Below, one piece after another: positions 8,668 to 59,634 of a stretch of 64,000 nt of DNA. The position numbers were made by a program, and so were the translations under genes. The number at the start of each line of letters is the position of its first letter. The stretch's first letter is position 1. Below the pieces are notes generated by a model. That model had not been told where the DNA came from, ran no database searches, and saw only the letters and a list, made by a program, of their open reading frames with translations. Source of the DNA: Azolla caroliniana (lineage: Eukaryota > Plantae > Polypodiophyta); the NCBI GenBank assembly GCA_043228905.1, contig JBHGNT010000010.1, positions 4,836,001 through 4,900,000 of the forward strand, in the 5' to 3' direction.

Positions 8668-9155
8668 TGTTACCCGGCCGGCAAGAAGGCTTAAGGATGT
8701 CCAGACCAGAGTGTGAAAGGAATAGTTTATTCGGGAACTGTTGTAATTATTTTATTAATATGGATGGACGGACCGGAATCGGTATGCCGATCCAGATTCG
8801 GACCGATTCTGAATAGGTGCCGGTTGGCACCGTTTTGTACTTCGCACCGGAGACCTATATAAAGGCCCGGTTACAATGTAATTAACAGCGGATAATTAAT
8901 AGAACTTATTGCCTTAACCTTTCAGTATTGATTACCTTTCTGTGCTTATTGCATATCTTACGCGTGTTAATGATGTATTGTTAAGTAACCAATTAAGGTC
9001 TAATTAAGCGTTGTGTCGCAAGTCATCTTGCCATAACACCCTTTGGTGAAGTGTCTTAAGTGGACACCTTGTGTTAGGCTGTTGTCCGGCCCTAGGATTA
9101 ACACAGTTTTTGGCGACCACGATTCTTGCACAATCGCAGTGAACAACGGCAGGAA

Positions 9156-12100
9156 TGGATGACTAGGCCAACAGACGACCCGGTTACGGAGAGAGCACGA
9201 AGACTTGCTGAACGGCGAAGGCGGCGGGAGGCTTTCAAGCAAGCAGCGGAAGAAATCCGATAGGATCGATCATTTTCCAAAGTGATCCGGAAAGTGGCGG
9301 AGGAGTCGCTCCGTCTGCAACAAAACGCCTACCCGGATGAAGGAAGCAACTTAAGCAGCCTCCGGGAAGCGGAATCCCTTCTCTAGGCCTTGGCCGTAAG
9401 AGCTGGCGAATCTGAAGCATTTTCAACGTTGGAATCGAATTCAGAACGGGGTTATAGCGCGCACACGAACTATCGCAGCAGTAACGACACCCTAGGAGGA
9501 CCGGAGGACGAGGAGTCGGATACATTACCGACACTGGAACTAGAGTTGTTAGACCGGGAACCCCCGACGTGGAGCAACCTCCGGAGACTGAAGAAGACAA
9601 AGGAAGACCTCTGACACCGGAAGTTGAGCCGACAACACCAAAGGAAGACCGACAAAGACCTCCGACGCCGACGGAACAACAAGAAAGACCACCGACACCG
9701 CCAGTCCGCGTACCGACACTGGACGATGACATGTCGTTCTAGTACTCCAAGTATAGGGATGACCCGGATGCGGAGGCTCATGTTCACGTGTTTCAATAAA
9801 CATGGGAGGTGAACCATGTGTCACAACGGTTAACTGCGACCGAAGAGGAAGGATCTAAGATAGCCGAATTCGGCGTGACATTGGAAGGACCGGCCGCCAG
9901 ATGGCACCGGATGCAGGACCCTAGCACCATCACCACCTTTGCGGACCTGAAATATAAATTCGTGCACTTCTTTCAGAAGGAGGTGGACCAGAGAGAAATG
10001 GTGGGCCTATTTTACACCATCCGGCAGGACCCCGGGGAGAGCATTCTGCAGTTTGTCATCCGGTTTCAGCGGATGCACAGTCAGCTTACCCGCGCACCTC
10101 CGGAGGAAGAAACACGAGCTATATTCTTAGCCGCGCTCCGGGAACCTCTACGAATGGTATGCACGGTCATCGACTTTCGCACAAGCATCGTCGACCAGGT
10201 CATCGACCGGGTTAGAGAAATGGAGAAAACGAGCTCTTGGCTAACAATGGGAGCCCTCCAACGAGCGTTACAAACCAATGAGGATCTCCGGTTCCGGCAA
10301 GCAATCTAATGCACGACCTGCTTGAATTCCGGACACTTGTCACTGGAGTGCACCATGCGGACGCACTGCTTACTTTGCCAATCTACGAGCCAGATGATGA
10401 ACTGGTGCGAATATAACTTATTGAATTGGCAAGCACCACCAGTCCGGCAAATCGAGCCACGTAGCAGCCGAGACGAAGAAGACGAACGCTGGCGGCGAGA
10501 GGAGCGATATCGACCGGGACAGGATGTCCGGTACGACGATTGGCGAGACAACTATGACCGGTACAAGAGATATGATAGGTACCGAGATTACAATGGACGG
10601 TACAAGCATCACAACTGGGATCACTCCCCTGGGTATCACCAACGACGGGAAGATTACGGGAGATATGACGACCAACCCCGTCAAGGGTACCGCAACAAAA
10701 AGAACTTTAATAAAAAACGGCATTTCAAAAAAGGGAGCCACCCACGTGAACTGGAAAAAGGCACCTCAAGCAGCCAACCAGACCAAAGCCCCGCGGTTAC
10801 CACGGGTCCTCCACTGGGTACAGGAAACAATGCCGAATCCAGCAATACCCGGAAAGCATATTGCTATTATTGCCGAGAAGAAGGACATTATAGTAATAAA
10901 TGTCCGGCAAAGATCTATGACAAGCAACCAGCAGTAAACATGGTAGTCGCCGAAGTCGCAGACCTGCAGCAGGATACCACAAGGTCGAAGGGCAGGATGA
11001 CGGAATGGGAGACACAAGAGGCCATCTGGAAGCAGGCAACGGAATGGGTGAAAAAGGCAAATGAGCGAAACGTAGCAAAACTTGCGCAACAAAAGGAGAA
11101 CACCGAAGAGCTCGCCGGCGGTAGTCAGACCGAAAATGCGACATGGCAGGCATTGCAGGAGTGCCAGATCACGCTGCCATTAGGACGGCTCCTGCAACTA
11201 GTGCCCAGATTCACAAAAGGACTCAAGACAGGCATGACGGCAGGAGAAACACCACCAACACCAACATTCTTCTCAAATCCGGAGGAGGGACCGGCGGTGG
11301 TAGACACAAATAGTCCGGCGATCACAGCCATCGTGAAGGGAAAGGAGTTACCCGGAACAGTAATAGATGGAGGATCCGGCGTCAATGTGATTAGCCTCCG
11401 AACATGTACCACCTTGGGAATCCAAGAGTGGGAACCATGCCCGTTCTGGCTACGGATGGCGGATACAAGCTTAGTACGACCGACCAGCTTAATACGAGAT
11501 TTGGAAGTAACAATCGGCGGCCACACATTTTGCATCACGGCAGTAGTGCTACAATTACAAGCACAAGGAGCTTACCCGCTATTATTGGGGCGGCCGTGGC
11601 TAAAAACGGCGCACATTAAACAAAACTGGAGAAAGAATATAATCACCTTCCGGCAGGGAAAAGCAAAAGTACGGGTACCGACACAACCACGGACGGGTAC
11701 TGGGAAGGAATTAACACCCCTATATGCCGAATGTGTCAATATGCTGGACGGATTAGTAGACGAAGAGGTGGATCAATACTTGCAAGATAATCCGAAGATA
11801 GTACCCCTGTTCGAAATTGACGTAGTTGAAGCCGTATCACCATACATACTGCCACCGGATGGAGCGGACGAAGAACCAAATAAAGAAGCGATCCGGGAGC
11901 TACAACAAGCACAAGAAGCGCTGGAAATAGAAATGGCCGTATCACAACTAGAGGAGGTAAATCTAGGAACTACGCAAGAGGTGAGACCGGTGCAAATAGC
12001 CAAGGAAATGACTACGGAGAACAGAACGACGATGATTACACTTCTCAAAGAGTTTCAGGACGTGTTTGCCTGGCCGTACGAGGATATGAGAGGGCTCGAT

Positions 12101-15100
12101 CCTCAGCTCTATCAGCATCAGATACATTTGAGCAAAGACGCCAAACCGGTAGCACAACGACGGTACCGAATGAATCCAAACTACGCCGCCAAAGTCAAGG
12201 AGGAAATCGACAAGTTGCTGAGAGTTGGCTTTATCCGTCCCGTAAAGAAATCTACATGGCTGAGCCTGATAGTAGTCGTTACAAAGAAAAACGGCAAAAT
12301 TAGAGTATGTGTCAACTACCGGAAGCTTAATGCGGCGACGGTAATTGATACATTTCCACTTCCATTTACGGATGGAGTTTTGGGCGCAATCGCTGGCCAT
12401 GAGGTATACAGTTTTTTAGACGGATTCAACGGATACAACCAGATCCGGATGCACCCTGATGACCAGGAGAAAACGACTTTCGTCACAGAATGGGGAGTGT
12501 TGCCGTAGTGATGATGTTTAGACTCAAAACGGCGCCACCAATGTTCTAGAGGATCATCATGGAAATTTTTGGAGAATTTGACGGGAACTCAACGCTCCTT
12601 ATGCACAAAGCTCGGCCACAACCGAGATTCTTTTCATACATAGAAAACAGGAAACAAAAAAAAAAAAACACGACACAAAGGAGAGGAAAATACACAGGAG
12701 GTTTACGTGGAAAACCCAAAGAGGGAAAAAACCACGGCAGCCCACAGGCTGCAAACTGTCACTATGTGAGAATGTACAACAGTGAGTTCACTGAGGCAAC
12801 GACCTCGTGCTCACAGATCTTCACCACACACGGCGGTTACAACAGAGGCAACGACCTCTTTCTCTCTCTCTCTCTCTATACACTATTACGTGCTCTCTCT
12901 TCTTCTTGCACCAACTAGGAAGAATGACAACAAACAACCATTTAGTAAAAGTTTGCCCTAAGTCATATTTATACTAATATGACTTTTCGGCTTTTTACAA
13001 ATGTAACCTGGATGGGCTCTCAGAAACATATTTACGAATATGTCTCTTCATCCGGTTCTCACCGGGTCTGTACCATCCAGCTCTCCGTAGTCGGCTACTC
13101 CTCATCCGGTTCATACCGGGCCTGCACCATCCGGCTCTCCGTAGCCGGGTACTCCTCATCCGGTTTCCCAACAGAATTCATACTGTTCTTCTTCCTTCCC
13201 ATCCAGAGGGACCTAATTCCCAACAGAATTCATACTGGCGTTCATGCAGGTGTTCCTCGACGACTTCGCCGTTTACAGCCGAGAAGGAGACCACCTTCAA
13301 CACCTCCGACTGTGTCTAGAAAAGTGTAGGGCTTACCGGCTAAGCCTGAATCCGGCGAAGTGTGTATTCGGCGTGTCCAACGGAACGCTATTGGGGCACA
13401 TTGTGAGCAAGGAGGGCATCGCCGTGGATCCGTACAAAGTAAAAGCAATCCTGGAGGCACCGACACCAAAAACGGCAAAGGCATTGAGCCGTTTCTTAGG
13501 CCAAATCCGTTCGCATAGCCGTTCATGCTCTAGTATTTGGCGAACCTAGCTACACCACTGCATGTTGTGGTACACCGAACACCGTTCCAGTGGACCGACA
13601 CTGAAGACAAGGCGTACCGGGCACTCAAAGTTCTATTGTCGCAAGCGCCGATAGTGCAACCCCCGGATTGGGCGAAGGAATTTCATGTGTTCGTGGATGC
13701 GTCCGACATTGCAATCGGGAGTGCGCTGATGCAACTTACGAAGCCAAAATGGTACCGGCCTGTATATTACGCAAGCCGAAAGTTATCCCAAGTCGAACGA
13801 AATTATTCCACCACGGAAAGGGAAGCTTTAGGCATGATCTACAACATAACAAAATTCAAGCATTGTTTATTGGGAAGAAAGTTTTCCTTCCATGTAGATC
13901 ATTCGGCACTCCTCTACCTAGTGTCCAAAGCGTCACTTACCGGTAAGCTGGCCCGGTGGACTTTGCTATTACAGGAATTCGAATTCGAGATATTCCACCG
14001 ACCCGACATACAGCATGCGGTAGCAGATTATTTAAGCTGGTTAGATTCCGGCGAAACCGGCGACGGAGTACCAGACGAGTTTCCGGATGCTGAGCTATTT
14101 CGAGTCACCGCGGAAACGACAACAGATGAAATGGTGGCACCAGAAGATAAGTGGCTAACAAATATGCACCAATTTCTGAGCACCGGATTGCCTCCGGAGG
14201 AGATGAACCAGGACGAGAGGAAACGCCTAGCGGTACAAAGCCGACACTTCTGTTTATTACGGGACACGTTGTACCACAAAGGTGCGGACGGTATATGGCG
14301 ACGAGCGGTGCGCAACGACGAGAAAGAGGTAATACTATGGGAAGCACAATGCGGAGTCACCGGAGGCCATTATGCCGGGGATGCTACAGAAAGGAAGATA
14401 TGGCAAAGTAGCCTATGGTGGCCGATTACATTGAAAGACGCAGTCCGGTACGCGAAAGAGTGTGATCTATGCCAGCAAATGGGCTAGCCAACGGAACAAG
14501 CTAGGATGCCACACCAACCAGTACTACCGCTAGAACCATTTCAGAAATGGGGACTGGATTTTGTCGGACCATTTAAAGCACCGGCAATGAGAACTGGCAA
14601 CCGGTATGTGATCGTCGCGACGGACTACTGCACTAAATGGGTGGAAGCCAAAGCCCTACGAGACAACACCGCGGCGTCGACGGAAAAATTCTTATACGAA
14701 TACATTTGGTGCCGGTACGGATGCCCCATAGAGCTAATAAGCGACCAAGGAGGGCACTTTCTTGGACAGGTAGTGGAGAGCTTGACGTCATTCTATGCGG
14801 TAGTTCATAAACGGAGCACCCCGTACTACCCACAAGCCAACGGATTAGTTGAGTCAACAAACAAAATGCTATAGAATATCCTGCACAAGATCGTCAATGA
14901 GAATCAGACAGATTGGGACACGAAGCTGCACAGTGCGCTCTGGGCTTACCAGACGGCGTACAAAACAAGCATCCGAACAACGCCGTTCCGGTTAGCATTC
15001 GGATTAGAGGCAGTCATGCCGGTCGAGTTCCAGGTACCGAGCTTACGGATCCAAATTCGGGAATGACTTAATGAAAAGGAATCAGAGGCAATTCGGTTAA

Positions 15101-15429
15101 AGGCTCTGTGTGAACTAGAAGAACACCGACTGGTGAGCATCATGCATCTGGAATTGGAACAACGGCGACGGAACGCGTTTGTAGATCGGCACCGGAAGGG
15201 AAATGAAAAGATGTTCAAAATCGGCAAGCCGGTACTAGTGTTCCAGACCCGGATGGGTAAAATGCCAGGCAAACTACGGTTTAGATGGACCGGACCGTAC
15301 TGGATCACACGCGAGTTCAATGGATCCTACCAGTTAGGGACACTTGCCGGCGAGGTGCTGGGTAAATGGGTCAACGGTTTTAGACTAAAGCCATACAAAG
15401 GACCTATGCCCAAGAACCCATTTGAATGA
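9156..15429 (+). pseudogene. Gypsy B gag-pol, degenerate and split by a solo LTR
   Basis: Zinc knuckles, protease VIDGGSGVN, RT (LDGFNGYNQI, VFLDDF), RNase H (VDASDIAIG), integrase (WGLDFVGP, PQANG, WTGPY). Confidence 0.92.
12579..13225 (-). mobile_element. Copia-family solo LTR inside the RT of element B
   Basis: TG...CA ends and perfect 5-bp TSD GAATT. Reverse-complement homologue of 33792-34689, with about 2.7 copies of the 54-bp U3 repeat. Confidence 0.92.
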
Positions 15430-17736
15430 AGGGCCGACACCGAATCGGACGCCGACAGGCCAACCAAGACGGCAACCTGTGAGGAAAATGGCTACCACCA
15501 AGCCGGTAAGGAGGAGCACGAGCCGGCAACCGGGGAGAGCAAAACGACGGCAAACCATTACGATGCCGGGAAGATTCTTCATTCGGGTAAGGGTTCGTTA
15601 GGACCGGAGAAAAATTAACCACACAATTAATTAAAAATAAAAATAAAAGGTACGAGGAGGCTATGAATAGGGCATTAAAACACCGCCACATGGCACGTAA
15701 TGCTATTATAGTACACGACCTGCACACGAGTAGGCTCGAAAAAGGTGCCAAGATGCAGAGAGAAAAACCCGCACGCATCGAGACCTTCTTCTTTCGCGAA
15801 CCGAGGAGAACAGACGCAGACAGACGTGTGAAGATCAATTGAAGAGAGCTCGTGCACAAAGAACCCCCTCACTCAGAACTTTCTCTCTCACACTCTCACC
15901 ACCGTCAAACCTCCCCAACGCTCTCCGACCTCGACGCAGAGATGGACTGCCAAACACTGTCTGAAGCCGCCAAGAAATGGCTACGGCAACACGGACTGGA
16001 GGGTTTCTTGACAATCATGGAGGTGGCGCCACACAAGGAGGCCGAAACGATTATCAAAGAAATCGACACAGAGTTGATCACGGAGGAGGCGATCCGTGCG
16101 TTAACAGGCCTTCCGGAGGGGGGCATCTACACGATTGACAATCCGACCTCCGAGCAGCTCATCAAATATTTCGGTGAGTATTCTCTCGCCAGCAAGGGCT
16201 ACAGGACACAGGGTGGCGAGAGAATACTCAGTGGCGGCCGGCAAAGAGAACTGCAGAATCAGCCGGGAAGCGTTCAGACCCACAGAAGGATGGAACGCCT
16301 GTAACCCACATTGAGACTCCCACGCTAAGGGAGGCACCGGAACCGGTTCGGATGGAACCGGTCACAGAAGTCCTTGCACAACAGGCAGCACCAGCAAGCT
16401 CCGTAACTCAAGAGCCGGTTATACAAATGCCAACCTCCTCAATCGGCCAAGAACAAGCAGAACAAGTGCGGCTAGCCGAAACACAACCGGAACCTAAACG
16501 GCAAAGTGGTCAGCAGGTAGAGCCGGAATTGCCGCTCGACGCAAAAAGGCAGGACCAGCCACCGACAAGTGAACCCATCAGCCAACCTGCCGTGCAGACG
16601 CAACAACAGGGCACCGACAGCCAATGGCTTCGGTGGATAGGAGAACAAATTGCTGGAGTAGTCGGATACATAGAGGCGGAAGAAAGAGCGCAAACAGAAT
16701 GGTTGCTAGTCACAACCGATGAACTAGAGACGGCCTGGTCAAGGATCCGGTGCCTCGAACAAGACTTGGATCGGGTCACAGAACACATGGCCAAAATGGC
16801 CTTAACCGCAACACAGATCCAAGCACCGGTGACTACGGTGGATGTACATACGAATAAGACCCCGGAGACAGAAACTGTTCTGGAGAAAGATGCGGCGCAA
16901 GCCTAAGAGCTTGCTGACTTAAGAGACGAACTTGCCGCACAAAAAGCATTACCGAGCCGCGAACGAGACTTGAAGAAGGCGGCCGAAGAAGAATTAAAGA
17001 AGACCACTGAGAACCTCCGCCGGGCAGAGGAAAACCTGCGTAAAGGACATCATGCTTACGACCGGCTAAAGGAGGAAAAAGAGTAATTGCTGTAGGAGAA
17101 AGACAAGCTGTGACGGATGGCGGAGAAGGAAATCGAAAGGCTGAAAGAAGAACTCCGTCAACAGAAGGACCGGGAGGACCGCGCGCTGTTGTGAAGATTT
17201 TCGGCAATAGTGTGAAAATCCCATAAAACGTACAAAATCGAATATGAATCACATAATACAATAATTGTGAAGATAACATTTTAAATAAATTTAATATCTA
17301 AGTAAAAATGATGGAGGTTTCGAATGCACTTTATTACACGAGAAACGGACAACTAAATGTCAAGATATGAGGGTATAAAGTTTGTGAAAGGAAAAGAGAA
17401 AATTGTGAGATATCCCACATAGGCACAACAAATACGGCTCTCATCATATATAAGATAGAGCAAAACATATTATCTTTATGTCTATGTGTGGAGCATAGAG
17501 AGTTCAAGATAACTTGAACTAAGAGTGGAGGTGGGCTAGCTACTCGTAAAGGGTTTTGGCCAACCAAAACCGGACCGGCGATGGAGCCGGTGATCCGGTA
17601 GCAATCCGGTGAGGCACCGGTATCTGACGGCAATCAGCGACAGCATCCGGCGAGGCACCGGTAACCCACGACATCCGACGAACCGGCGTCCGGTGACTAG
17701 ATAAATAAATATATAAATATATATACATATACAAGG

Positions 17737-17808
17737 AGGGCAAGTAAGGATTCGAACCTTGCACCTCCGAGTTAGGAGTCAATTGGCTTACCATTAAGCC
17801 ATGCCATT
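17737..17808 (-). ncRNA. tRNA-like (SINE-head-like) sequence in U3 of the element C 5' LTR
   Basis: On the minus strand: A box TGGCTTAATGG with D-stem GCTT/AAGC, CTCCTAA loop, and B box GGTTCGAATCC with stem AAGG/CCTT. The acceptor stem is poor. An AT-rich tail follows. Confidence 0.65.
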
Positions 17809-18337
17809 TAGTTGAATTTATATTTCTATCATTGTACTTTTACGTGTAAATTCTCATACATGAGAGCTAAAATGAGTGACATGGTTATCATGCACCACAT
17901 GTAATACATAAGCGCCAAATGGCAAGCATGCATTTTATGCATGTCTTGTACCCTCACATGCATCATATGCATGAGAGCATCTATAAAAGAAGGAAGGGGG
18001 AGGAGAAAAAACGCGTTTTTTTTTGTTATGAAATTAAGAAGAAGAAATTCGTTATCAAATTGATCGTGTAACTTGTTTCTTAAATCTAAAGATAAAAGTT
18101 CAATCAATCTCTCTCAATCGTTTAATCTCAACTTCTCTCTTTCCCAATCTATCTTAAGTACTTTCTCGCCAAAGCTTGCGCCAAAGCTTGTACCGACTTT
18201 GAATCCTTCCGGTCTAGAACCCCGGCGGTTTCGCCTCACGATCCGCGCGTAGTGACGGATCTTCACGACATAATTAAGTGGTGAACCCGACGTGAAAGAG
18301 GCGGTAGGAAGGATCAAGTCGAGATTAATACTTGGAG

Positions 18338-21300
18338 ATGGTGTCCTCAAGCAACCAAGCGGGAGAGCTCGAAAGGATGATGCTAATCGTCGAGCAAATG
18401 ATGAGATCTCGGGACAACAACACGAGCGTGGAGAAGGCTATCGATCGTGTCGTAGAGCTCGAGGGCCAATTCGATGGAAGGAACGTTACGAAGTTCCTTG
18501 ATGCATATAGAAGGGAGATGAATCAGAGGGACGTGTCCGACGCACGTCAAATCGTAAGCTTCAAGAGAGTTGTCGCCAACAACATCCAAAGACGCGTCAT
18601 CGAGCTTCAAGAAGGTAAGACAACATGGTCCGAGTTCGAGAAAACGATACTAGCAGAGTTCGTGACTGAAGACTCAACGAGGATGATTCGACATGCCCTG
18701 ATGAAGTGGATAGAGAAGAAGAATAAGAAGATGAGCATCTCGAGGGTGTACGACGAATTCGACCAAATGTTTGGTCGTCTCCCCAATACGGACCAAGTGT
18801 TGCTTGAAGAGGACAAGACTTTGTACTTCTTGAAGGCCGTGGACATAAAGGATAGACGGGAGTTGGGGACTCTTCTCGAAGATGATACCCAAGCAAATGG
18901 GCTCGTAGTGGACTAGATCGCGGTGAAGCGGGCATGCAATAGGCTCGACAAGCGTCGCCAATGGGTTGATGACACCGACTTGACGGGATCGACTACCACA
19001 GAGAAAGCAAGACTGCCGAAAGTAGCTTAGCCGCCAAGACAAAGTAACGTGGAAGAAAAGAAGATTGATGACGACATCATTGAAGAGCTAGCGAAGAAGT
19101 TCAAGAAGGTCACACTAGCCAACATGAATCGTCGGGGCCCTAAAGGAAAAGAACCCTTTAGATGCGTGTGGTGCGATAGCATGGACCACATGAGAAGGGA
19201 TTGTGCGAGCCTTCGAGAGGCGATTCGACAAAATATCGTATACATAGAGGACAACATGATCTGCTCAAGCGTGACTAGAAGACCCCTACGGGTGAATTTC
19301 GGAAGAGGAGGAATGAAGAAATCTATGGAGGATGCCGATGCGACTCATGTGGATGCGATGCACTATGCTGCGTCGGCTGGAATAAGAGTCGGGAAAGACA
19401 AGACTGAAGCTGCTAGAGCGAGAGCAAAGTTTTGGACTTTCGTTCTTGAATATGAGAAGAACGAGGTAGAGCTTGCAGACCGAAGCGTGCAAAGCATAAC
19501 CGGGTGGTCGGATCCGGTGGACGACAACACCATACTCGCAGAGGTGATGTGCGACAACCACGAGGTGTTCGTCGAAGAAAAGAGAAGGACGATGCGGAGA
19601 CGAGTTGACCTTTACAAACGGAGGAACGAGAATCAAGCCGAAAAGGGGAGCCGAGCATACGAGTTGAAGAAACGGTTCGGGCCATGAAGGTTGGTGTCGA
19701 AGACCCCGCTTGGAGGACAAGGACTATACCTACCTATAAGCTAAGGTCGGACATAGAGCAGACGACGAACCTAAAGAAGATTCTCGAAGAACGAGTTCTT
19801 GATAGCCACGTAACTTTTTCCTTGAGGGAATTGCTTGGCATTACGAAGAAGGAGTTCCATGACATGATCATGGACCTTGTAAAGAGAAAGAGACAACAAT
19901 CGGACGAGGAAGAAGAGAAGCCGCAAAAAGCAAAAACGAATGCCATAACGATGGCAAGAGACGAAGTCGATGAAGATATGGTGGACAGCCACTATACTCG
20001 ACCTCATTGGGCACGAGCGACAACGGAGACGCCGGTGAAGATAGGGGAGAAGAAAGAGACCGTGGTAGCCTTGATCGACCACGGCTCGGAGATCAACCTC
20101 ATGTCAACCGACTTCTACAAAAAAGGAAGATGGCCAATCAATACAAACCACGGATGGAAGATTCGCGCGGCAACAAAGTCTACGGAGGACTTGTACGGAG
20201 CTTGTCCCAATATCAAAGTCACAATCAGGGATGTGGAGATGGATCAACACTTCTTCATACAAGAATCGGCGTCGCATCCTGTCATCCTAGGGCAACCTTA
20301 TATCACATCATCTCGGATGGAGACCAAAGTGTTCGATAATGGAGCAACCTTCGCACGAATAAAGAGTCTTGACAACCAAAGATTGGTCCAATTCCTAACG
20401 GTGCGAGCCAATCATGAAAGGAATCGAGATAGTCCGAGCAATAACAAGACCCCACAAGAAAGAAGAGTGCGTGGATTGCGAGGAGAAGCAACATGTGTCA
20501 CACCTAGTGGCGTATGTAAACTAGTACTACCCGACAAGAAGCACAAGCACCGGATACAAGAATTTGAGAAGATGCTGAAAGAAGAAAACATAATAGAAGA
20601 AGGAGAGTTCGTGACTCATATTATGGAAGAAGCCTCATTTAACGACACCATCGGTGAAATTGAGGACGTCGTGGACTTGAGCTATCTTCACAACCAACGC
20701 GTGATTTCGGTTAACTTCGTCAACATGTACGCTATCATCAATGAATACAGTCGTGGCATCTCAATGAAGGAAGCTGACATCAACACGAAATATAAAACGG
20801 TGGATAAGAAGATCAAGCCAGTTGCGGTTCCGCTACCAGAAGATAGCTGGCAAAAGATGAAGGAAGTTGCTAACGATCCAAGCTTAAGAGATCCGAAGAA
20901 GATAGGTCATGTCTTCACCAAAGAGACGAAGGGGAAGCTACGAGTTGGAAAGGAGGATTTCCTTCTCCCTAAAGAGGAGCAAATGTTTCGCGATATGCTT
21001 GAGAGACATGGGAAGGCTTTCGCATTCTCTACACGAGAAATCAGATGCGCCGACCCAAAGGTTATAGAGCCGATGGTGATCTTCACGGTGCCTCATGTGC
21101 CTTGGAATTTGAAACCGATACCGGTTCCGAGAGCACACCTTCTGAAGCTGATCGAGCTCTTAAAGGAGAAGGTGAGTATGGGAATTCTAGAACCGTCGAA
21201 TGCTCCTTATTCCAATAGGTGGTTCACGGTGCCAAAGAAGAATGGATCATTGCGATTCATCCAAGATCTTCAACCCGTCAACAAGGTGACAATTCAAAAT

Positions 21301-24058
21301 GCTGGAATCGGTCCGAGCGTGGACGAATTTGCCGAAGTGTTTGCAGGCCGGTCCATCTACTCCATTGACGATCTCTACTCCGGATATGACCAATTCCAAT
21401 TGGCGATTGACAGTCGGGACATTACAACCATGAGGACTCCGATCGGGCTTGTGCGGATGTGTACCTTACCCCAAGGCGCAACGAACTCAGTGGCTCATAT
21501 GGTGAATGCCATGAATAAAGTCTTGAAGGATTGCATCTCGGACATCACGATGCCATTCTTGGATGATATTCCGATAAAAGGATGTTCGGATGAGGAGAAA
21601 GATGAATCGAAAGATAAGGAAGGTTGTAGAAAGTTCGTTGCGGATCATATGAAAGATTGCGAGAAGGTGCTTCAAAGGCTCGAAGATGTGAATTTGACAT
21701 TTTTGGGAGAAAAATCCGCATTCGGGCAACCAGAGATCTTGGTGGTAGGTCACTTGTGTGGAGCATACGGCTGGAAGCCCTCACCATCCAAAGTGAATGC
21801 AATCCAAGACATGAAAGAAGAATGCGAAAACCAAACGGAGGTTCGAAGGTTCCTTGGAGTGTGCGTGTTTGATCATATATGGATTCCTCACTACGCTCAT
21901 GTCGCCGAACCGTTATATGGACTACTAAAGAAAAGAATGAAGTTTGAATGGCGAGACGAGCACACAAATGCGATGCGAAGATTAAAGAAATTGCTTCTTG
22001 AAGCTCCGGCACTAAGGAAGGCCAACTATGCCGAAGGGAAACCAATTTACGTGACCGTAGATACGAGCCCAACCGGAATCGGGTGGATCATCAATCAAGA
22101 AGGTGAAGATAATGTGCAATATGCCGTCCGGTTCGGAGCAAAGGTTCTCAGTGAACGGCAACAAAGATATGCCCAAGTCAAGCGGGAACTTTGGGGGTAT
22201 TGTGTCGGTAGTGAAGACGGACAAAGATTACCTGATCGGGTCAGAAGTGATAATAGAGACAGATTGTCTCCCAATTCTCGGAATGGTCTCGGGATGTGCG
22301 ACCCCAGATCTTGCTATGCTAAGGTGGATCGCCTACATCAAGTCTTTAAACCCAGAGATCCGTCACATTGCAGGGAAGAAGAATGCCATGGCTGACATGC
22401 TGTCGAGGGCAAGATTTTCAAATGGAAGTAACATGGTTTCGGAAGATGAAGATGTCTCCCTCGACTTCTTCAAGATGGCTCGATTGTCGGCAGAAGACCA
22501 GGACACGCAAACCCTCCATGCCTTCAACGAGAACGAGTACGAAGGAGAGTGGTTACTCATCGGTAGATTCCTAAGAACATTGACGATAGATGCTTCGTTG
22601 ACAAAGGAGGAGGCCCTACGAATCCGAATGAAAGCTTACCGATACTTCTTGAAGGGAGGATTCCTTTGGCGACATCCAAAAAGAAGGACAGGAATACCAC
22701 GACGAGTGGTGGTAAAGAAAGAAGAGCAAGAGACGCTAATGACCGAATTCCACGAGAGTGCTTGGGCAGGTCATAGAGGAACATGGGCGACGTTCGAAAA
22801 GTTGAAGGAGAAGTATTGGTGGCCAAGCATGTACAAAGATGTACTCCATTTCGTGTCCACATGCGAAACTTGCCAAATATATTCAAATATATGTCATCGT
22901 GATGAGTTACAGCCGACATACCCACTCACCATACACTTCAAATGGATGGTGGATCTGGTCTCAATGCCAATGGGAGTGGGACAAATGAAGTACTTAGCAC
23001 TGGCAAGGGAAGACTTGACAAATCAAGTGGAAGGACGAGCCTTGACAAATAAGATGACTTCAACTGTTTGCAAATTTTTTCTTGAAGAGGTTGTTTGCCG
23101 ATATGGATGTGTAGGGAAGATAGTGGCCGACCGAGGGGAGTTGGACACGCACGAAGCAACGGAGCTCTTCGAAAGACTAGGCGTGAAGCTCTCCCTGATG
23201 ACTGCCTACAATCCGGAAGCAAATGGGAAGATCGAGCGAGGGCATGGACCTATCGTTAAAGCCATCGTACGGGCATGCAACGGTCGAGTCGGGAATTGGC
23301 CATGACTATTACCCTATGCCTTGTGGGCCGATAGAACGACACATAGCTCGGTGACAGGGTATATGCTGACGGAGCTTATGTATGGACAAAAGCCGATTAT
23401 GCCCATTGAAAGGACGATCGTCTCATTGAAAGCCATCGTACGGGCATGCAACGGTCGAGTCGGGAATTGGCCATGACTATTACCCTATGCCTTGTGGGCC
23501 GATAGAACGACACATAGCTCGGTGACAGGGTATATGCTGACGGAGCTTATGTATGGACAAAAGCCGATTATGCCCATTGAAAGGACGATCGTCTCATGGG
23601 TAGTGATACCGTGGGAGAACGAGATGAGCAGAGAAGAGTTATTAGCGGCGCGGATAAGGCAACTTGAAAGAAGACCTGAAGATTTAGAAAAAGTGCGAAA
23701 GATGATGGAGGCAACCCGAGTAAAGAACAAAGTTCGGTTCGACAACACGCATCGACTTTGTCCCAAGAAGATTGAAGAAGGAGATTGGGTTTTGGTTTAC
23801 GACAGCACCCTTGACAATCAACATAGTACAACAAGGAAGTTCGCAAGAAGATGGTTCGGGCCGTATGTGGTGACAAGTGCCAACGATAATGCCACATACC
23901 ACCTTGCGGAACTAGACGGATCAAGGTTGGCCGTACCCATTGCGGGAAAAAGAGTAAAGATTTTCAAGGAAAGACAAGACAAGGATCCTGACCTCAATTA
24001 CCTCGACGATGAACATAATAGGGTGGATGTAAATGAAGACATGCAGGAATCTAATTGA
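18338..24058 (+). pseudogene. Gypsy C gag-pol
   Basis: Gag knuckle CVWCDSMDHMRRDC, protease LIDHGSEIN, RT MPFLDDIPIKG, RNase H VDTSPTGIG, integrase ADRGE and WFGPY. A few stops and frameshifts. Confidence 0.93.
23258..23597 (+). repeat. 171-bp tandem duplication in the element C integrase
   Basis: 23258-23426 is repeated at 23429-23597; both copies contain the same TGA stop. Confidence 0.9.
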
Positions 24059-24775
24059 TCACCGTAGCCGAAATATCACTTTCTCTCTTCTTGGCACGTA
24101 CCGGAGGACGTGCGGTTTGGTGGGGGTGGATGTCGTGAAGATTTTCGGCAATAGTGTGAAAATCCCATAAAACATACAAAATCGAGTATGAATCACAAAA
24201 TACAATAATTGTGAAGATAACATTTTAAATAAATTTAATATCTAAGTACAAAATGATGGAGGTTTCGAATGCACTTTATTACACGAGAAACAGACAACTA
24301 AATGTTTAGATATGAGGGTATAAAGTTTGTGAAAGGAAAAGAGAAAATTGTGAGATATCCCACATAGTCACAACAAATACGGCTCTCATCATATATAAGG
24401 TAGAGCAAAACATATTATCTTTGTGTCTATATGTGGAGCATAGAGAGTTCAAGGTAACTTGAACTAAGAGTGGAGGTGGGCTAACTACTTGTAAAGGGTT
24501 AAATGGCCAACCAAAACCGGACCGGCGATAGAGCCGGTTATCCGGTAGCATCCGATGGCAATCCGGCAATGGCGGCATAATAGGGTGGATGTAAATGAAG
24601 ACATGGAGGAATCTAATTGAATCCGGCGACGGTGAGACGACGGCATCCGGCGAGGCACCGGTATCCGACGGCAATCGGCAACGGCATCCGGCGAGGCATC
24701 GGTAACCGACGAACTGGCGTTCGGTGACTATATAAATAAATATATAAATATATATACATATATACATATACAAGG

Positions 24776-24847
24776 AGGGCAAGTAAGGATTCGAACCTTG
24801 CACCTCCGAGTTAGGAGTCAATTGGCTTACCATTAAGCCATGCCATT
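24776..24847 (-). ncRNA. tRNA-like sequence in U3 of the element C 3' LTR
   Basis: Appears identical to 17737-17808. Confidence 0.65.
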
Positions 24848-26832
24848 TAGTTGAATTTATATTTCTATCATTGTACTTTTACGTGTAAATTCTCATACAT
24901 GAGAGCTAAAATGAGTGACATGGTTATCATGCACCACATGTAATACATAAGCGCCAAATGGCAAGCATGCATTTTATGCATGTCTTGTACCCTCACATGC
25001 ATCATATGCATGAGAGCATCTATAAAAGAAGGAAGGGGGAGGAGAAAAAACGCGTTTTTTTTTGTTATGAAATTAAGAAGAAGAAATTCGTTATCAAATT
25101 GATCGTGTAACTTGTTTCTTAAATCCAAAGATAAAAGTTCAATCAATCTCTCTCAATCGTTTAATCTCAACTTCTCTCTTTCCCAATCTATCTTAAGTAC
25201 TTTCTCGCCAAAGCTTGCGCCAAAGCTTGTACCGACTTTGAATCCTTCCGTTCGAGAACCCCGGCGGTTCCGCCTCACGATCCGCACGTAGTGACGGATC
25301 TTCACGACAGTGCACCGGAAGATCAACCAGAGGCTGAAGCAGAAGATCGATTATTTTGATCATCTGCACCGGGACTATAAGCAGTTGGAGGCGGAGTATA
25401 AGCAACAGCATGAAAGGATGGCCGAGCTCCGGCAAGAAGTTGATAGGGCCAGAATGGCACTCGCCGATGAACGAGCTTAGAGATCAAAGCTATTGGAGGA
25501 AGCGACGATGGACCGGATGGACCTCCACAAACAGAACCATGAAGAAAAGGAAAGGGCGACAATGGTATTACAGAGGTTGCAAACAACCTATCAAAGTCAA
25601 TTGTCGCATTATAGGGAGCAGGAGGCGGACATGGTCAAAATCATCAAGCAATTGAAAGAGGAGCGACAAGCCGCAGAGAACAAATCACGGATGGGAACCG
25701 AACGGATCCAGTGCATCCTCCGAGCATGGCTCACCAAGACCAAACGCTTGATTGACGAGAGCTCTGTGCAATGGTGGACGAAATGGGCGCAAAATACGGC
25801 GGAACTCCAATTGCTCAGGGTGGACGTGGAAAACCGGCGGAAGGAAGGTGATGATTGTTATACGCTGACATCGGAGGACTTCACTGCCATAAGGGATGAG
25901 TTGGCCGAAGATTTCACAGCCTTGGCGGATGAACAATTGGTGCAGGTCCGATAGCTCATAGCTCAACTGGACGACGATCGGCTGGAGGCTCAAATCTAGT
26001 TTGAGAGCTATGAGCAGTCCCGGCTCCGGGAAGAAAAAGCAAGGAAGGCGGCAACAGTGATGAAGAACCGTCGCCGGTACAAGGACCAAACGGGGACTAG
26101 GCCGGGATCAGTCAGCCAACGACAACTCCGACGGAGGAGACAACGAAGGAAACGCCGGTGCCAGAGCAACAAACGGAGCAGCAGCCCCAAATGGAGAAGG
26201 CACAAACAGAGCAACCACCGCAGCAGCCACAAACGGAACAGTAGCCACAACAGCAGCAGCCAAACCAGCAACAATAGATTCCCGACGAGCCATTGGAAAT
26301 TCTGGAGCAAAGCATTCTGGACATTTTGGACGAAGAGTAGCAGGGCCGGATAATGGGTTCAATGTACAAGGTACTGTCCCACGGGCGTGCCATGTGTTAC
26401 CCGGCCGGCATGTCCAGACCAGAGTGTGAAAGGAATAGTTTATTCGGGAACTGTTGTAATTATTTTATTAATATGGACGGACAGACCGGAATCAGTATGC
26501 CGATCCGGATCCGGACCGATTCTGAATAGGTGCCGGTTGGCACCGTTTTGTACTTCGCACCGGAGACCTATATAAAGGCCCGGTTACAATGTAATTAATA
26601 GCGGATAATTAATAGAACTTATTTCCTTAACCTTTCACTATTGATTACCGTTCTGTGCTTATTGCATATCTTACGCGTGTTAATGATGTATTGTTAAGTA
26701 ACCAATTAAGGTCTAATTAAGGTCTAATTAAGCGTTGTGTCGCAAGTCATCTTGTTGTAACACCCTTTGGTGAAGTGTCTTAAGTGGACACCCTGTGTTA
26801 GGCTGTTGTCCAGCCCTAGGATTAACAAAGCC

Positions 26833-32049: not shown

Positions 32050-33791
32050 ACGTAATGACGTTGGCTGATTAGTATGCCCTCGGGGGTGCGGATCACTTCG
32101 ATCCTGAGGAAGTAATGAAGGCCACCCAGATCCTTCATGTTGAATGATGCCGCAAGCTGGAGCTTTACGCGGTCAATTTCACCTAGGTTGGCGCCGGTAA
32201 TTGCCAAGTCATCAACATAAAGTAAACTACTAACCGGCCCGAGTCGACCTTTTTGGATGAACAGTGAGGAGTCTGATTTTGACGTTGCAAAACCTATCCG
32301 ACGCAATCATTGCCTGATCTTTGCGTTCGAGGCACGCGAGGTTTGCTTTAGTCCGTAACGGGACTTCTTCAACCGGCACACCACCGAAGTGTTCGTTCCG
32401 GAGTGAAATCCGGGGGGTTGTACCATGTACACCTGTTCCTCAAGCTCACCTTGCAGGAACACATTCTTTACATCCATCTGATGTAAGTGCCACCCCTTTG
32501 CCGCAACTACCACGAGCAAAACACGGATGGTCGTCATCTTCGCGACCGGTGCAAACGTCTCATCGTAGTCGATGCCGTGTTGCTGCGCGTAACCTTTTGC
32601 TACTAACCAAGCCTTGTATCGGTTGACCCAACCGTCAGTGTTGTACTTGACCTTGTACACCCACCTACATCCGATCGGCTTCACACCCTTCGGTGCGTCA
32701 ACTACGTCCCAGGTTTCATTTTGAGCCAATGCGTGCATCTCTTCCTCCATTGCGGCACGCCAATTTACGTCTTTCGCTGCTTCTGCGTAGCTCTCTGGCT
32801 CACGTACTTCCGCTACACGCGTCATGTACATATAGTGATGCGCCATGTACTCGTTGTATCCGAACCGCACAATAGGGTTCTTCTAGCGGGTAGATCAGCG
32901 TAATTGTTCATTAGCCGATGTTGAGGCTTTCTTAGCCGACGCGGACTTCTCTCTCGAACACCTGTCATCACTTCCCTCAGAGTCAGACTTGCGTCGATCC
33001 GACTCATTCCTATCCGTGCCATAATCCAACACCTTCTTCTTCCCTTTTTCCTTGTGTGTAAGCCGTCTCCTCAGCTTCCTGCGTGGGGAATGCACGATCG
33101 AGTCTCCACTACTCATCGGCTCTACATTGGATTGGTCGAACTGACTCAGTCGTCCATTCAGTCCCCTTAACCGAAACGAAATTGAACTCTCTTCGTGGAT
33201 CTCGATTTCAGGCTCATCTGGAGGCATCTTGGCCTCGCTGACCTCATGGTCAAAACTCAGATTGGAGGTGAGGTCCGGAGTCGAAGGCAAGTACTAGGAC
33301 GCAGACTCGTCAAACACAACGTCGCGGCTCACGCGCACTTGTTTGGTGCGAGGGTTATAACACTTATAACCCTTCTGCTCGTCCGAATAGTCGACCAAGG
33401 TACACTTCTCAGCTTTCGCATCCAACTTCCTCTGTTTCTCCTTCAACACATGCACATACGCAATGCTACCGAAAACTCTCAAGTGTGGTAGATTCGGCTT
33501 CCTTCCGAAATACTACTCATGCGCCGACACTTTGTCTCCGATCCGATTCTGGATGTATATTGCGGTTCGTACCGCCTCGGCGCAATAGAACATGGGCAAG
33601 CTCTTTTCTTCCAACATTGCCCGCGGCGCTTCCACAACCGACAAATTTTTCCTTTCGACCACGCCGTTTTGCTCTAGCGTATATCTGCAGCTGAATTCGC
33701 GTCGAATTCCCATCTATTGCATATACCTGTTGAATTGACCGGCAAAGTACTCTTTTCCGCCATCCAACCGCAAACACTTGATCTTTGTTTC

Positions 33792-34689
33792 TGTTGGGAG
33801 ACAGGTCCCTCCGGATGGGAAGGGAGAAGACCGGATGAGGAGTACCCGGCTATGGAGAGCCGGATGATGCAGACCCGGTGAAGACCGGATGAGGAGTACC
33901 TGGCTACGGAGGGTCGGATGGTGCAGACCCGGTATGAACCGGATGAGGAGTACCTGGCTACGGAGAGCCGGATGATGCAGACCCGGTGAAGACCAGATGA
34001 GGAGTACCTGGCTACAGAGGGCCGGATGGTGCAGACCCGGTATGAACCGGATGAGGAGTACCCGGCTACGGAGAGCCGGATGATGCAGACTCGGTGAAGA
34101 CCGGATGAAGAGTACCTGGCTACAGAGGACCGGATGGTGCAGACCCGGTATGAACCGGATGAGGAGTACCCGGCTACGGAGAGCCGGATGATGCAGACCC
34201 GGTGAAGACCGGATGAGGAGTACCCGGCTATGGAGAACCGGATGAAGAGACATATTCGTAAATATGTTTCTGATAGTCCATCGAGGCTATATTTATAAAT
34301 AGCCGAAAAGTCATATTAGTATAAATATGACTTAGGGCAAACTTTTAGTTGTTGTCATTTCTGTTTTGCATGAGATCAGTGTGCGTAACTGTACACAGAG
34401 AGAGAGAGAGAAAGAGGTCGTTGCCTCTGTTGTAACCGCCGCCTGTGGCGAAGATCTGTGAGCATGAGGTTGGTGCCTAAGTGAACTCACTGTTGTATAT
34501 TCTTACATAGTGACAGTTTGCAGCCTGTGGGCTGCCGTGGTTTTTCCCCTAGTTTGGGGTTTTCCACGTAAACCTCCTGTGTATCCTCCTCTTCTTCTAT
34601 TCGTGTTTTATTTCCCATTTTTTTCTGTGTATCATTCTAAGCTTGGTTGTGGCCGAGCGTTGCGCATAAGGAACGACCAGTTCCCGTCA
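33792..34689 (+). mobile_element. Copia-family solo LTR inside the element D integrase
   Basis: TGTTGG...CCGTCA ends and TSD GTTTC/GTTTT. The host frame VERETETKIKCLR is restored. Homologous to the LTR of element E. Confidence 0.92.
33831..34246 (+). repeat. 54-bp tandem repeat (~7.7 copies) with 108-bp alternation in U3
   Basis: CCGGATGAGGAGTACC recurs every 54 bp. Units alternate between GGTGAAGA and GGTATGAA variants. Confidence 0.9.
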
Positions 34690-39100: not shown

Positions 39101-39561
39101 ACGTTGTCATGGAGAAAACCGTCCCTAGGCGGAATCGGAGAAAAATGTGCGCGAACTGGCCCTTATACGTAGGCACAAGTTTTGTTGTAATATATATATT
39201 TAGGTACAAGTCGGCATATGTGAATATCCTAGGTAGCATGCATTTGTTAGGTAGAAAATCGAGGCGTATCTCTGTCCGAAAAGGACAGAGAGTAAAGATG
39301 ATGTAACGGGTTGTGACGGCCTCCCTCCTTGGGCTATAAAAGAGAGGGAGAGGAATCGAAAAAAGGGACCGCTTTTGACGAGGACGAAGTGTTGTCGGAC
39401 TAGGACCGAGCTCTTCTTCTCTGTCTTTCTCTGTATTTGCTCTGTGCAGGTTTTCGGGAGGCTGACTCTACTCCACGGAACGCCCGAGTGCTTCCGGCCG
39501 AGTCTCCATCTCACGTGTGTGTGCGTGTGTGCGTGTGTGCGTCAGGGCTCATCGCTCACCG

Positions 39562-42500
39562 TGTTGGGATTACGGTCCCTCCGGATGGGATGGTCGGATG
39601 TCCGGGAATCGGGAATGAAGACCCGAATGAGGAGTACCCGATTCGGGATCCGGATGATGAAGACCCGGTTCCGGAGCCGGATGATGAAGACCCCGGTTTC
39701 GGATCCGGATGATGAAGACCCCGGCTACGGAGCCGGATGATGAGGACCCCGGCTACGGAGCCGGATGACGAATGTACCCGGAGAGAGATCCGGATGCGGG
39801 GACATATTTGTGAATATGTTTGCCAAGGGCCCTCGAGGCTATATTTGTAAATAGCCCGAAAGTCATATGTGTATAAATATGACTTAGGGCAAACAGTTTT
39901 GGTGCTGTTACTCATTTTTCTGGTTTCTACTTAGAGGGAGCTAAGTGAGCAGTAGAGAGAGAGAGAGAGAGAGACGAAGAGGTCGTTGCCTCTGTGTATT
40001 ACCGCCGCTTGTGGCGAAGACAGTGAGCTCAAGGTTGTTGCCTTGTAGCTTCACCATTGTACATCTCTGTTTTAGTGATAGTTGGAGTTTGAGGACTCCC
40101 GTGGTTTTTTCCCATTTAGGGTTTTCCACGTAAAACATCCAGTGTATTCTTCTCTCTATTGTCTTCGTGCATTTTGTATTTCCTGTTTTCTGTGAGTAGA
40201 TCCTATTCCTCGGTTGTGGCCGAGCGCTCTCTTTAACAAAGTGGTATCAGAGCGACGGTAACACAGAAAATGGAAGGCGGCGGTAGTGGGCCTCCGGGCA
40301 TGATGGTGTTGAACTCACAGAACTACGCCGACTGGAAGATAAAGATGGAAGACCTTCTCATCGTCCGAGACCTGTACGAACCGATCGACAATGCCGAGAT
40401 ACCCAAGGGGGTAATAGAGACGGAATGGAGGTTTCTGAACCGGAAAGCCGTTGCAACCATTCGGCAATACGTCGACGTGAGCGTTCTACAACATGTGGCG
40501 AACGACACCAACGCATATAAGATGTGGCGGAAGCTGTCGGGCCTCTACGAGAGGAAGAATGCGTTGAACCGAACCTCCCTGATGAGGAAGATAGTGAACC
40601 TCAAGTACCGGGACGGCGAGAGTATGGTGGAACACGTAAGCACGTTCATGGGATTCGTGAACCAGCTTGCGGCGATCAAGTTCCCATTGGAGGATGCAAT
40701 GCAAGCCATCATCCTGATGTGTACATTGCCGGAAAGCTGGGAGAACTTGGTGGTGACTCTCAGCACCTCCTGCACCGAAGATAACTTGTCCCTACAAACG
40801 GTAAAGACAAGTATTTTGAACGAAGAAGCGCGTCGGAGAGATAAAGAACCGGCCTCCGATCCGAAGATGCTGCTTACCGAATCGGATCGGGGAAGACAAC
40901 GGAACCGGAGTCCGCAAAGACGGGAGAAGTCGGGGACCCGGTCGTAGTCAAGAGGAAGGCCCACATGCTTCCACTGTGGGAAGCCGGGGCACTTCCGGAA
41001 GAATTGTCGGCATTACCGAAAAGACAACGGAGCCGACGACACCGATTCGAAGAAGTCACCGGAGCGAAACGGTGCATATCGGGGAGCCACGGACCGGAGA
41101 GGTCCGGATCGGCGAGGGCAGGACCGGAAAGGAACGACGGCACTCGCGGCAAGTGAAGAAGAGATAATGCTCATTACCGAAGAGAGGGAGCTGAACCTTG
41201 CCGGTGAAGAGATGACCTGGGTGGTCGATTCCGGAGCGTCGTTCCACCTGACCCCGGAGAAGAAATACTTCTCATCCTGCACAGCCGGTGAGCACGGCTG
41301 TGTCCGGATGGGAAATGAAGGTACATGCCGGATTGCCGGCATAGGAGACGTGTGGCTGATGACATCAACCGGATGCAAGATGCTGCTGAAGGATGTTCGA
41401 CACGTTCCGGAGGTTCGATTGAACCTGATTTCGGCCGGGAGGCTAGACGATGAAGGCTACACGGGTAGCATCCGGAACGGTGTCATGAAGTTTAGCAAAG
41501 GGAGCCTGATAGTGGCTCGGGCCCGGAAGGTCAACACACTGTACCTGATGAATTCCCGGCTATGTCCGGAGGAGCTGAACGTGGCAGCTGACGCTGCCGG
41601 TGAGCTGTGGCACAAGAGACTGTGCCACATGAGCGAGAAGGGGATGAAGAGGCTTGCAGAAGACAACCTTATTCCAGTGAAGCATGTGCATCTGGAGAAG
41701 TGCACCGATTGCCTGGCCGGTAAGCAGAACCGAGCCTCCTTCCACTCAAGGCCACCGATGAGACGTAGCGCACCATTAGAGTTGGTGCACACTGACGTGT
41801 GTCAAGTAGAAACGAAGTCACATGGTGGAGCCCAGTACTTCGTGACATTCATTGATGACCACAGCCGGAAGCTGTGGACGGCACCGTTGAAGACAAAGGA
41901 CCAAGTGTTGTGCGTCTTCAAAGAACTCCACGCGAGAGTGGAAAGAGAATCCGGCAAGAAGCTGAAAGCACTACGAGCGGATAACGGAGGAGAATACCGA
42001 GGGCAATTTGAGGAGTATTGCCGTTCGATGGGAATCCGGCTCGAGTTTACTGTGCCGAAGACACCGGAACTGAACGGGTTGGCCGAGAGGATGAACCGGA
42101 CCATAATGGAGAGGGTCCGGAGTATGCTAGCACATGCGAAATTACCCAAGGGATTTTGGGCTGAGGCAATGTCGACGGCGACATATGTGATAAATAGATC
42201 ACCCTCAGTACCCCTGGATGGAGACACGCCACAGAGAGTGTGGACCGGTAGGGAAGTATCCTACCGGCATCTGAAGGTGTTCGGATGTCTCGCATACGTG
42301 CATGTGGCAAAGGACCGGAGAGGAAAGTTAGATCCAAAGACCCGGCCATGCATATTCCTCGGTTACGGCGACGACGAGTTCGGCTACCGAGTATGGGACC
42401 CGGTCGACAAGAAGATATTCAGGAGTTGTGATATCATCTTCATGGAGGACAAGACACTCGCTGACTGGGAGTCAGAGAAGAAGATGAAGAGCTCCAAGTC

Positions 42501-59545: not shown

Positions 59546-59634
59546 ACTACGCATTTGACATCGTTGTGTCGTGACATTAGCTTCCCTTTTATGGTCGCCT
59601 TTTCAAAAGCGTGGTGTAGGGGTGGACGGGAATT

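Follow-up and report, generated by a model that had tools for sequence, protein, structure and literature searches.

A probably tRNA-derived, promoter-like unit in the U3 of a Gypsy retrotransposon of Azolla caroliniana and of related LTRs

Organization of the window

The window, i.e. the whole stretch of 64,000 nucleotides of Azolla caroliniana DNA analysed here (contig JBHGNT010000010.1, positions 4,836,001 to 4,900,000 of the forward strand), contains plant-type LTR retrotransposons nested within one another. Nesting is three levels deep at 6858-32049, where Gypsy B holds element D (8698-26829) and D in turn holds Gypsy C together with a solo LTR. In addition, the element B2 (39105-51496) carries a young Copia element (39562-45003; 3 LTR mismatches) inside its 5′ LTR. 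Flanking 4-bp duplications of the NCGN type are observed as GCGC/GTGC, ATGT/ACGT and CCGT/CCGT, while the pair ACGT/ATGC of B2 fits less well. The Copia-type LTRs at 33776-34298, 39640-39800 and 13044-13165 contain GC-rich 54-nt (27-nt) tandem arrays in their U3 regions.

Gypsy C and the non-coding element J contain the tRNA-like units described below (Table 1). A scan with a box matrix reveals no such unit in the remaining LTR families of the window, and the B-type LTRs are also devoid of it. The element at 52419-57228 was considered as J and rejected; it is a separate element, without the unit.

Table 1. Features of Gypsy C and element J (window coordinates). Box mismatches refer to what we take to be the textbook tRNA-promoter consensus.
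Feature	Coordinates	Strand	Remarks
Gypsy C, whole element	17187-25309	+	8.1 kb; RT, RNase H and integrase present
Gypsy C 5′ LTR	17187-18270	+	TG...CA ends
A/T-rich simple-repeat tract behind C unit	17698-17735	-	SINE-tail-like
tRNA-like unit, U3 of C 5′ LTR	17737-17808	-	stems decayed
B box of C 5′-LTR unit	17748-17758	-	0 mismatches; 32 nt from A box
A box of C 5′-LTR unit	17791-17801	-	0 mismatches
A+T-rich leader (78%) of C unit	17809-17848	-	TFIIIB would be positioned here
Conserved block, C unit to TATA	17860-17975	+	CATGCA repeats; GCGCCAAA at 17912-17919
TATA box, Pol II promoter of C LTR	17982-17988	+	motif-based assignment
C primer-binding site (PBS)	18279-18296	+	tRNA type, presumably tRNA-Trp (isotype)
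C gag-pol region	18329-24058	+	several frames; DUF4100, RT, RNase H, integrase; this copy broken
Gypsy C 3′ LTR	24131-25309	+	flanks GCGC / GTGC, a 4-bp TSD with one transition
Identical unit, C 3′ LTR	24776-24847	-	A box at 24840; B box 24797-24787
Element J	61676-59045	-	non-coding LTR element; ~1.8 kb without its insertion
J 3′ LTR	59045-59576	-	TATA 59310
Decayed unit, J 3′ LTR	59482-59548	+	A-like 59489-59499; damaged B-like 59533-59543; spacing 33
J 5′ LTR	60331-61676	-	interrupted by MITE-like insertion
Decayed unit, J 5′ LTR	61582-61648	+	A side hit by 4-nt gap; B side 61630-61640 mostly kept

Gypsy C and its tRNA-like unit

The coding frames of Gypsy C fill its internal part (18271-24130), and no match to the chromodomain family is found in its gag-pol region at E<=0.001. 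The reverse transcriptase (RT) is 66-75% identical to Riccia proteins; among the best 120 of 310 matches, no other relatives carry a name. At the end of the integrase region an exact 169-nt tandem duplication is present (23258-23597).

According to the original prediction, both LTRs of Gypsy C carry an apparently identical antisense unit with good A and B boxes, which lies 174 bp upstream of the TATA box and is replicated with the element. All of this is borne out: the two copies are letter-identical and their boxes have 0 mismatches, the distance from 17808 to 17982 is 174 bp, and the unit, being present in both LTRs, is a heritable part of the C LTR. With one mismatch allowed, 16 B-box matches occur in the window, of which only those of the two C units are free of mismatches. 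Under a box matrix whose training set consisted solely of other loci, the C unit scores 47.4 bits, compared with a maximum of 21.2 over 30 shuffled windows.

The C unit is not a functional tRNA gene, as the cloverleaf is lost and the tRNA finders are silent. ARAGORN reports 0 tRNA genes in the window, C units included, and 0 in all 27 of the relatives' loci scanned (27/27), and with a lowered threshold it returns noise only. The Rfam tRNA scan gives no tRNA call on the unit, the Rfam scans of the window contain no 5S match, and folding of the unit yields part of a cloverleaf, without significance (z -1.35).

The block between the unit and the TATA box contains CATGCA repeats and the motif GCGCCAAA, which we take to be RY-like and E2F-like, respectively. 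The two C LTRs differ at 31 of 1074 aligned sites, with 0 differences among the 386 sites of 17701-18086, a block that comprises the tail, the unit, the promoter block and the TATA box and has no counterpart in the window's other LTR pairs of like divergence. Gene conversion, a recombinant element and shelter from methylation-driven change are alternative explanations of this difference-free block.

In two sequencing runs that are presumed to be RNA, contigs extend over the U3 (17217-17681 and 17322-17656) and over the unit together with the TATA box (17739-18010 and 17739-18024); since contigs give neither strand nor start, they are uninformative on transcription of the unit. In 4/4 DNA runs the contig depth over the unit is about that of the rest of the LTR, where depth is no copy number. 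This comparison covered 40 of 110 variants and 24 of 1083 loose ends, and among the latter 24 no large pile is found at the unit borders.

Element J and its decayed unit

Element J contains a PBS-like stretch (60330-60318) that pairs with a stretch (59278-59267) beginning 32 nt after the TATA box. The PBS-like stretch would thus match the beginning of J's own transcript, as is characteristic of self-priming, and J, which is without a coding part, would be of the self-priming type (Tcn1/Tf1 kind), unlike C in its mode of priming. The MITE-like insertion in the 5′ LTR (~60557-61384) shows short inverted ends and an 8-bp duplication, is located at the predicted transcription start of this LTR, and is probably hAT-like. 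Between the unit and the TATA box (59330-59430) J contains GAAnnTTC / TTCnnGAA repeats, presumably heat-shock-element-like; a similar short stretch is present in the related locus L034 (4365-4390).

A more decayed tRNA-like unit had been predicted for J, antisense in U3 and 172 bp from the TATA box, which is where it is found (TATA at 59310), but its score as a whole unit is not significant window-wide: the two copies reach 12.9 and 13.1 bits, and 13.0 is attained by 10/30 shuffled windows. Whether the J motif merely scores at background therefore has a divided answer. The whole unit does so over the window, whereas within U3 none of 2000 shuffles of either U3 attains the score of the J unit, and the B-side half of the 5′-LTR unit, at 25.2 bits, exceeds the maximum of 20.0 over 50 shuffled windows. 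The damage is at different places in the two LTRs. Searches with nhmmer and BLAST using the C unit miss the J unit, which is detected by the box matrix alone.

Occurrence of the unit among related LTRs

The distribution of the unit was analysed in a sample of 80 loci with an RT 66-94% identical to that of C (best 80 of 184), on contigs that are collapsed repeats and may include chimeras. A quick RT tree (83 rows, 11 starred forks) served solely to group families. In an untrained scan with textbook boxes, 26/33 A/B pairs in 90,147 nt of flanking DNA show a spacing of 32-33 nt, compared with 0/14 pairs in the coding DNA of the 80 loci (310,765 nt) and with 3 such pairs in total over 20 runs of flank shuffles. 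The 26 flank pairs comprise 18 in antisense orientation and 8 in sense, the latter located in U3 (L010-L012) or downstream of the TATA box. A matrix built from 23 units yields 34 positions of at least 20 bits, spread over 21 loci and all outside coding DNA, a result that is circular for the 23 seeds; C is no seed. The module is therefore wider than first noted, being lineage-wide and present in many LTR families.

Some units stand alone. Tandem pairs 136-183 bp apart occur in L043, L058 and L078, and an extra sense unit 74-192 bp downstream of the TATA box is found in L018, L028, L043, L049, L058 and L078, while L010-L013 have a sense unit in U3. In L043 (6573-7054) and L078 (3207-3727) two antisense units lie upstream of the TATA box and a sense unit lies downstream, and all three face away from it.

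The loci L020 and L060 have unit-bearing LTRs with different starts, and L020 contains an 11-nt motif of J at an equal TATA offset. In L029 a weak unit (25.7 bits) is located in an LTR-like stretch behind a Copia RNase H sequence (E=3e-6). These three cases suggest that the module crosses lineage lines, although the assignments rest on short evidence; accordingly graded, the unit appears to be present in Phygy-like and in self-priming-type Gypsy LTRs and, weakly, in one Copia-linked LTR. The promoter-side motif of C is likewise found in LTRs of different lineages. A GCGCCAAATGGC motif and CATGCA repeats, presumably E2F-like and RY-like, are common to the window block 17860-17975 and to L018, L020, L038, L047, L058 and L060, and are reversed in L019 and L030.

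A free-standing source was sought as well. No clear case of a free-standing unit occurs in 28 kb of non-element DNA from the distal parts of the loci, save the Copia-linked LTR-like case; no free-standing copy of a tRNA-type SINE is seen in the window, and an exact-pattern scan of metagenome contigs with the middle part of the unit gives 0 matches. The proposed capture of a tRNA or SINE head is thus upheld in part: the unit would be a captured tRNA-type head and is inherited with the LTR, but a parent SINE was not found in those 28 kb.

Absence of the unit and mosaic LTRs

The unit is absent from the U3 of L001, L002, L003, L007, L008, L017, L037, L041, L042, L046, L049 and L064. L001 and L002 are the closest RT relatives of C (94%), yet lack a unit in U3, and L037 and L041 share their promoter block with L043 and have no unit. 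By a by-eye tally, a U3 unit is present in about 10 of the 20 RT groups with visible U3. The distal U3 of C resembles that of the unit-free L002, L003 and L005, while its proximal U3 resembles that of L018, L038, L047 and L058; this mosaic suggests that C acquired unit and core promoter as one block via recombination. The unit is a dispensable, optional and mobile accessory, which in J is decaying.

Repeats of AAACCCTAA, presumably telo-box-like, are frequent downstream of the TATA box in unit-free LTRs (L001:2010-2060, L007:1180-1360, L008, L017 and window 52640-52710), where they are possibly a substitute promoter aid.

Conservation of the boxes

LTRs were gathered by the promoter-side motif and not by the boxes, which gave 13 matches, 11 of them forward. 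A unit is present at the expected place in 10/11 forward LTRs, and the reversed L019 and L030 carry units too. In the six LTRs that can be aligned with C from unit to TATA box, the pairwise identity is 0.81 for the A box and 0.82 for the B box, compared with 0.52 for the D/anticodon spacer, 0.66 for the leader and 0.45 for the 3′ side; the neighbouring promoter block is conserved like the boxes (0.81-0.82). The key box positions, which we take to be the tRNA invariants, are invariant in 11/11 cases, versus 26/129 of the other positions. When each of four RT clades is represented by a single LTR, these figures are 10/10 and 45/130 (Fisher p=5e-5, a value that is too small, since the rows are related, the key positions were picked after viewing the alignment, the TATA boxes were placed by eye and the collapsed contigs are possibly chimeric). 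The original prediction had asked whether the boxes are more conserved than the flanking U3 across copies, as a test against passive insertion; as they are kept better than the surrounding DNA, the outcome of this test is against a passive insertion.

The tRNA fold is not retained in the same way. Over 27 units the cloverleaf positions pair at 47.0%, versus 48.2% in shuffled sequences, and 389/500 shuffles are as high; pairing at shuffle level indicates that selection does not act on the tRNA fold. In L047, 11 nt of the anticodon arm are gone and both boxes are retained. In columns 50-51 of alignment A1 the B box is directly preceded by two G residues, at the variable-loop position of a tRNA, whose invariance over 27 units is at least 90%; this near-invariant GG falls outside the textbook boxes. 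With the sampling caveats given above, the unit appears to be a DNA promoter element under purifying selection, and its pattern is neither that of a tRNA nor that of neutral decay.

Distance to the TATA box, leader and terminator

In 15 LTRs the distance between A box and TATA box is 146, 148, 156, 158, 160, 162, 164, 166, 179 (J), 181 (C), 183, 189, 191, 198 and 262 bp; the proximal unit, which faces away from the TATA box, thus lies 146-198 bp from it in 14/15 LTRs, with L021 (262 bp) as outlier. The TATA boxes were placed by eye, the automatic pick having miscalled two and missed three, and L058, L060 and L029 were excluded from the set because their contig is without a TATA box. The spacers of J, L028, L034 and L066 show no alignment with any other. 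For seven groups whose spacers are unalignable beyond 38 nt the distances cover a range of 33 bp, with p=5e-6 against uniform placement in U3 and p=0.008 once the outlier L021 is included, both values being too small owing to shared ancestry. The band of 146-198 bp would correspond to about one nucleosome plus linker. The predicted equality of the distances in C and J holds as to the figures, 174 and 172 bp, but their near-identity is partly luck, since the relatives span a band.

The leader has an A+T content of 68-85% in 17/18 units. The position of a terminator is not conserved: the first T4 run occurs 3-266 nt from the B box in 18 units, only 178 nt past it in C, and within 45 nt of it in 10/18 units, a figure without a null. 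A CAA start, which we take to be the plant-type Pol III start motif, is found in just 2/18 units.

Proposed role of the unit and alternative explanations

To explain these observations we propose that the unit is a tRNA-derived Pol III promoter, which as a heritable part of U3 would be kept as a TFIIIC site that holds the Pol II promoter open in heterochromatin; by our estimate this proposal has about an even chance of being right. The unit may have been captured long ago from a tRNA gene or a tRNA-type SINE, and may have spread through exchange of U3 blocks between co-packaged elements. TFIIIC bound to the boxes would load TFIIIB in the A+T-rich leader, i.e. toward the TATA box, with a gap of one nucleosome length between unit and TATA box. 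The benefit would be that nucleosomes are cleared or phased and silencing is blocked at the Pol II promoter. The genomic RNA is presumably made by Pol II, as suggested by the TATA box and in J by the self-primer 32 nt after it, which would make the unit an accessory and not the element's promoter. That the unit faces away from the element body also argues against its making the genomic RNA.

The roles of TFIIIC and TFIIIB in this proposal are borrowed from the behaviour of tDNAs in yeast and animals. tRNA genes are nucleosome-free with a positioned nucleosome upstream (PMC11346459), and in yeast the spreading of Sir proteins is limited by TFIIIB/C (PMC9540200). CpG methylation is reported to exclude TFIIIC (PMC11346459), so that the site would be restricted in copies that are methylated. 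Conservation of the boxes cannot separate activation from repression. A broader version, which is possible but which we consider doubtful, is that several lineages of LTR retrotransposons in a group of land plants carry and trade a portable candidate TFIIIC module at about one nucleosome from the TATA box, sometimes doubled or bracketing the TATA box, that would insulate the Pol II promoter against silencing.

If the unit were instead an active divergent Pol III gene, its transcription or a short antisense RNA could dampen or tune the element, by interference, by silencing of the tRNA-gene type or as a source of small RNA. The retained boxes, tRNA spacing and A+T-rich leader agree with this, as does, lacking a null, the T4 run within 45 nt in 10/18 units; Pol III units that give small RNAs have a precedent in the LTR of a coding retroelement, the foamy virus (PMC3993851), and in Arabidopsis, Pol III on one strand is anti-correlated with Pol II on the other (PMC11346459). 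However, RNA fold, body sequence and terminator position (178 nt in C) are unconserved and the CAA start occurs in 2/18 units, which leaves an active gene unlikely. Conservation of DNA motifs as such could also mean that tRNA-derived sequences were co-opted as binding sites of a conventional Pol II transcription factor, in the manner of CATGCA and GCGCCAAA, with Pol III factors uninvolved. The boxes are indeed conserved like the adjacent promoter block (0.81-0.82), and the extra invariant GG lies beyond the textbook B box. This reading is nevertheless very unlikely, as two separate motifs are kept with the spacing of a tRNA, the residues fixed in them are precisely those invariant in tRNAs, and this holds for either orientation.

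The patchy presence of the unit, the sister families without it, the decay in J, the sense orientation of some copies and the A/T tail in C would all be expected of neutral relics, i.e. of tRNA-type SINEs that inserted in LTRs on one occasion or on several and then spread as passengers of successful families, and fresh captures of different tRNA-type sequences would have box residues in common too. We consider this quite unlikely: in LTRs that derive from a single capture, as judged by both flanks being alike, the boxes do not vary, yet identity falls to 0.45-0.52 in the spacer and on the 3′ side, fresh tRNA copies would retain stems, which the units do not, the spacing is nearly free of indels and the position is confined, and the 28 kb of other DNA contain no free-standing copy. 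A role as landing pad or tether, in which bound TFIIIB/C directs integration of retroelements beside the unit, as for Ty3 at tRNA genes, is hardly probable at all. Nested insertion is common in the window, but the few insertions or breaks seen near a unit are at unlike distances from the A box (~66 in L029, ~200 in J and ~227 in L066), and the junctions of the lineage obey the NCGN motif instead, which precedes the LTR in 6/6 Trp-type locus junctions examined. An origin of the unit by read-through copying of the primer tRNA is unsupported, as in 18 units the 3′ part fits the PBS complement at just 1-8 of 14 positions. Our preferred reading remains that of an accessory TFIIIC site.

Implications

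Searches of open-access papers found no account of a divergent tRNA-type promoter that is conserved in full-length LTR families of plants, although Repbase and the Helenus supplement may list some. Known Pol III promoters in plant LTRs belong to tiny non-coding elements and make the element RNA, whereas the present units occur in full-length families, with boxes under apparent selection for another job beside an intact Pol II promoter. If the unit does protect the promoter in chromatin, it would represent a new anti-silencing device of transposons, a tRNA-derived barrier that they carry with them, and unit-bearing LTRs would scatter TFIIIC sites through heterochromatin. The thousands of copies with and without the unit per genome would then be a natural test of tRNA-type barriers in plants; whether tRNA-type elements act as barriers in plants is left open in the relevant passage of a review (PMC9540200).

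Comparison with known systems

In yeast and animals, tDNA and TFIIIC barriers are, under our working model, comparable to the unit in that B-box-type sites act on nearby chromatin, but these are host loci and not transposon-borne, and the passages on them in PMC9540200 and PMC11346459 contain no plant example. The foamy virus LTR resembles those of C and its relatives in having Pol III units with A and B boxes in a coding retroelement transcribed by Pol II; it differs in that its units are miRNA hairpins with terminators (PMC3993851), whereas the units described here have tRNA geometry and no conserved fold, body or terminator.

In Cassandra and Ajax, which are non-coding, a 5S-type promoter has taken the place of the Pol II promoter and drives synthesis of the genomic RNA (PMC10853983, PMC10886601). 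These elements contain a captured internal Pol III promoter that has become fixed and conserved in the LTR, as the unit described here would be, but the C and J units have tRNA-type A/B geometry and no 5S match, and the TATA box is kept. The analogy to Cassandra that was drawn originally is thus a loose fit: it holds for a Pol III promoter within an LTR, and fails in that the TATA box is retained here and the unit is directed away from it.

The element that contains the unit is itself probably of a known kind. Phygy is a non-chromovirus Ty3/gypsy clade described from Physcomitrella (Neumann 2019, PMC6317226), and the features of C, as matched to that description, fit this clade: C is short and filled by its polyprotein, shows no chromodomain match and has the NCGN target motif. 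The passages on this clade (PMC6317226) make no mention of a Pol III unit.

The closest known kind is Helenus (TRIMp3; Kojima 2024), a group of non-coding TRIMs of 311-1263 bp with a Pol III promoter that is proposed to transcribe the element; an origin by SINE insertion has been proposed, a functional tRNA is considered unlikely, and one lycophyte family is known (PMC10886601). Its autonomous partners are expected to use Pol II and to have no long LTR stretches in common with it, and 'not a few' LTRs in Repbase are said in a passing remark to have tRNA-like parts, of which only the TRIMs were followed up (PMC10886601). Like Helenus, C contains a tRNA-derived sequence with conserved A and B boxes in both LTRs. 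Unlike Helenus, which is short, C is a coding element of 8.1 kb, and J, although non-coding, measures ~1.8 kb without its insertion; moreover, the units of gag-pol families are mostly antisense and face off the element body, and the TATA box is retained in C and J. Helenus is thus the nearest relative in kind of the LTR units described here, and C lies outside its definition.
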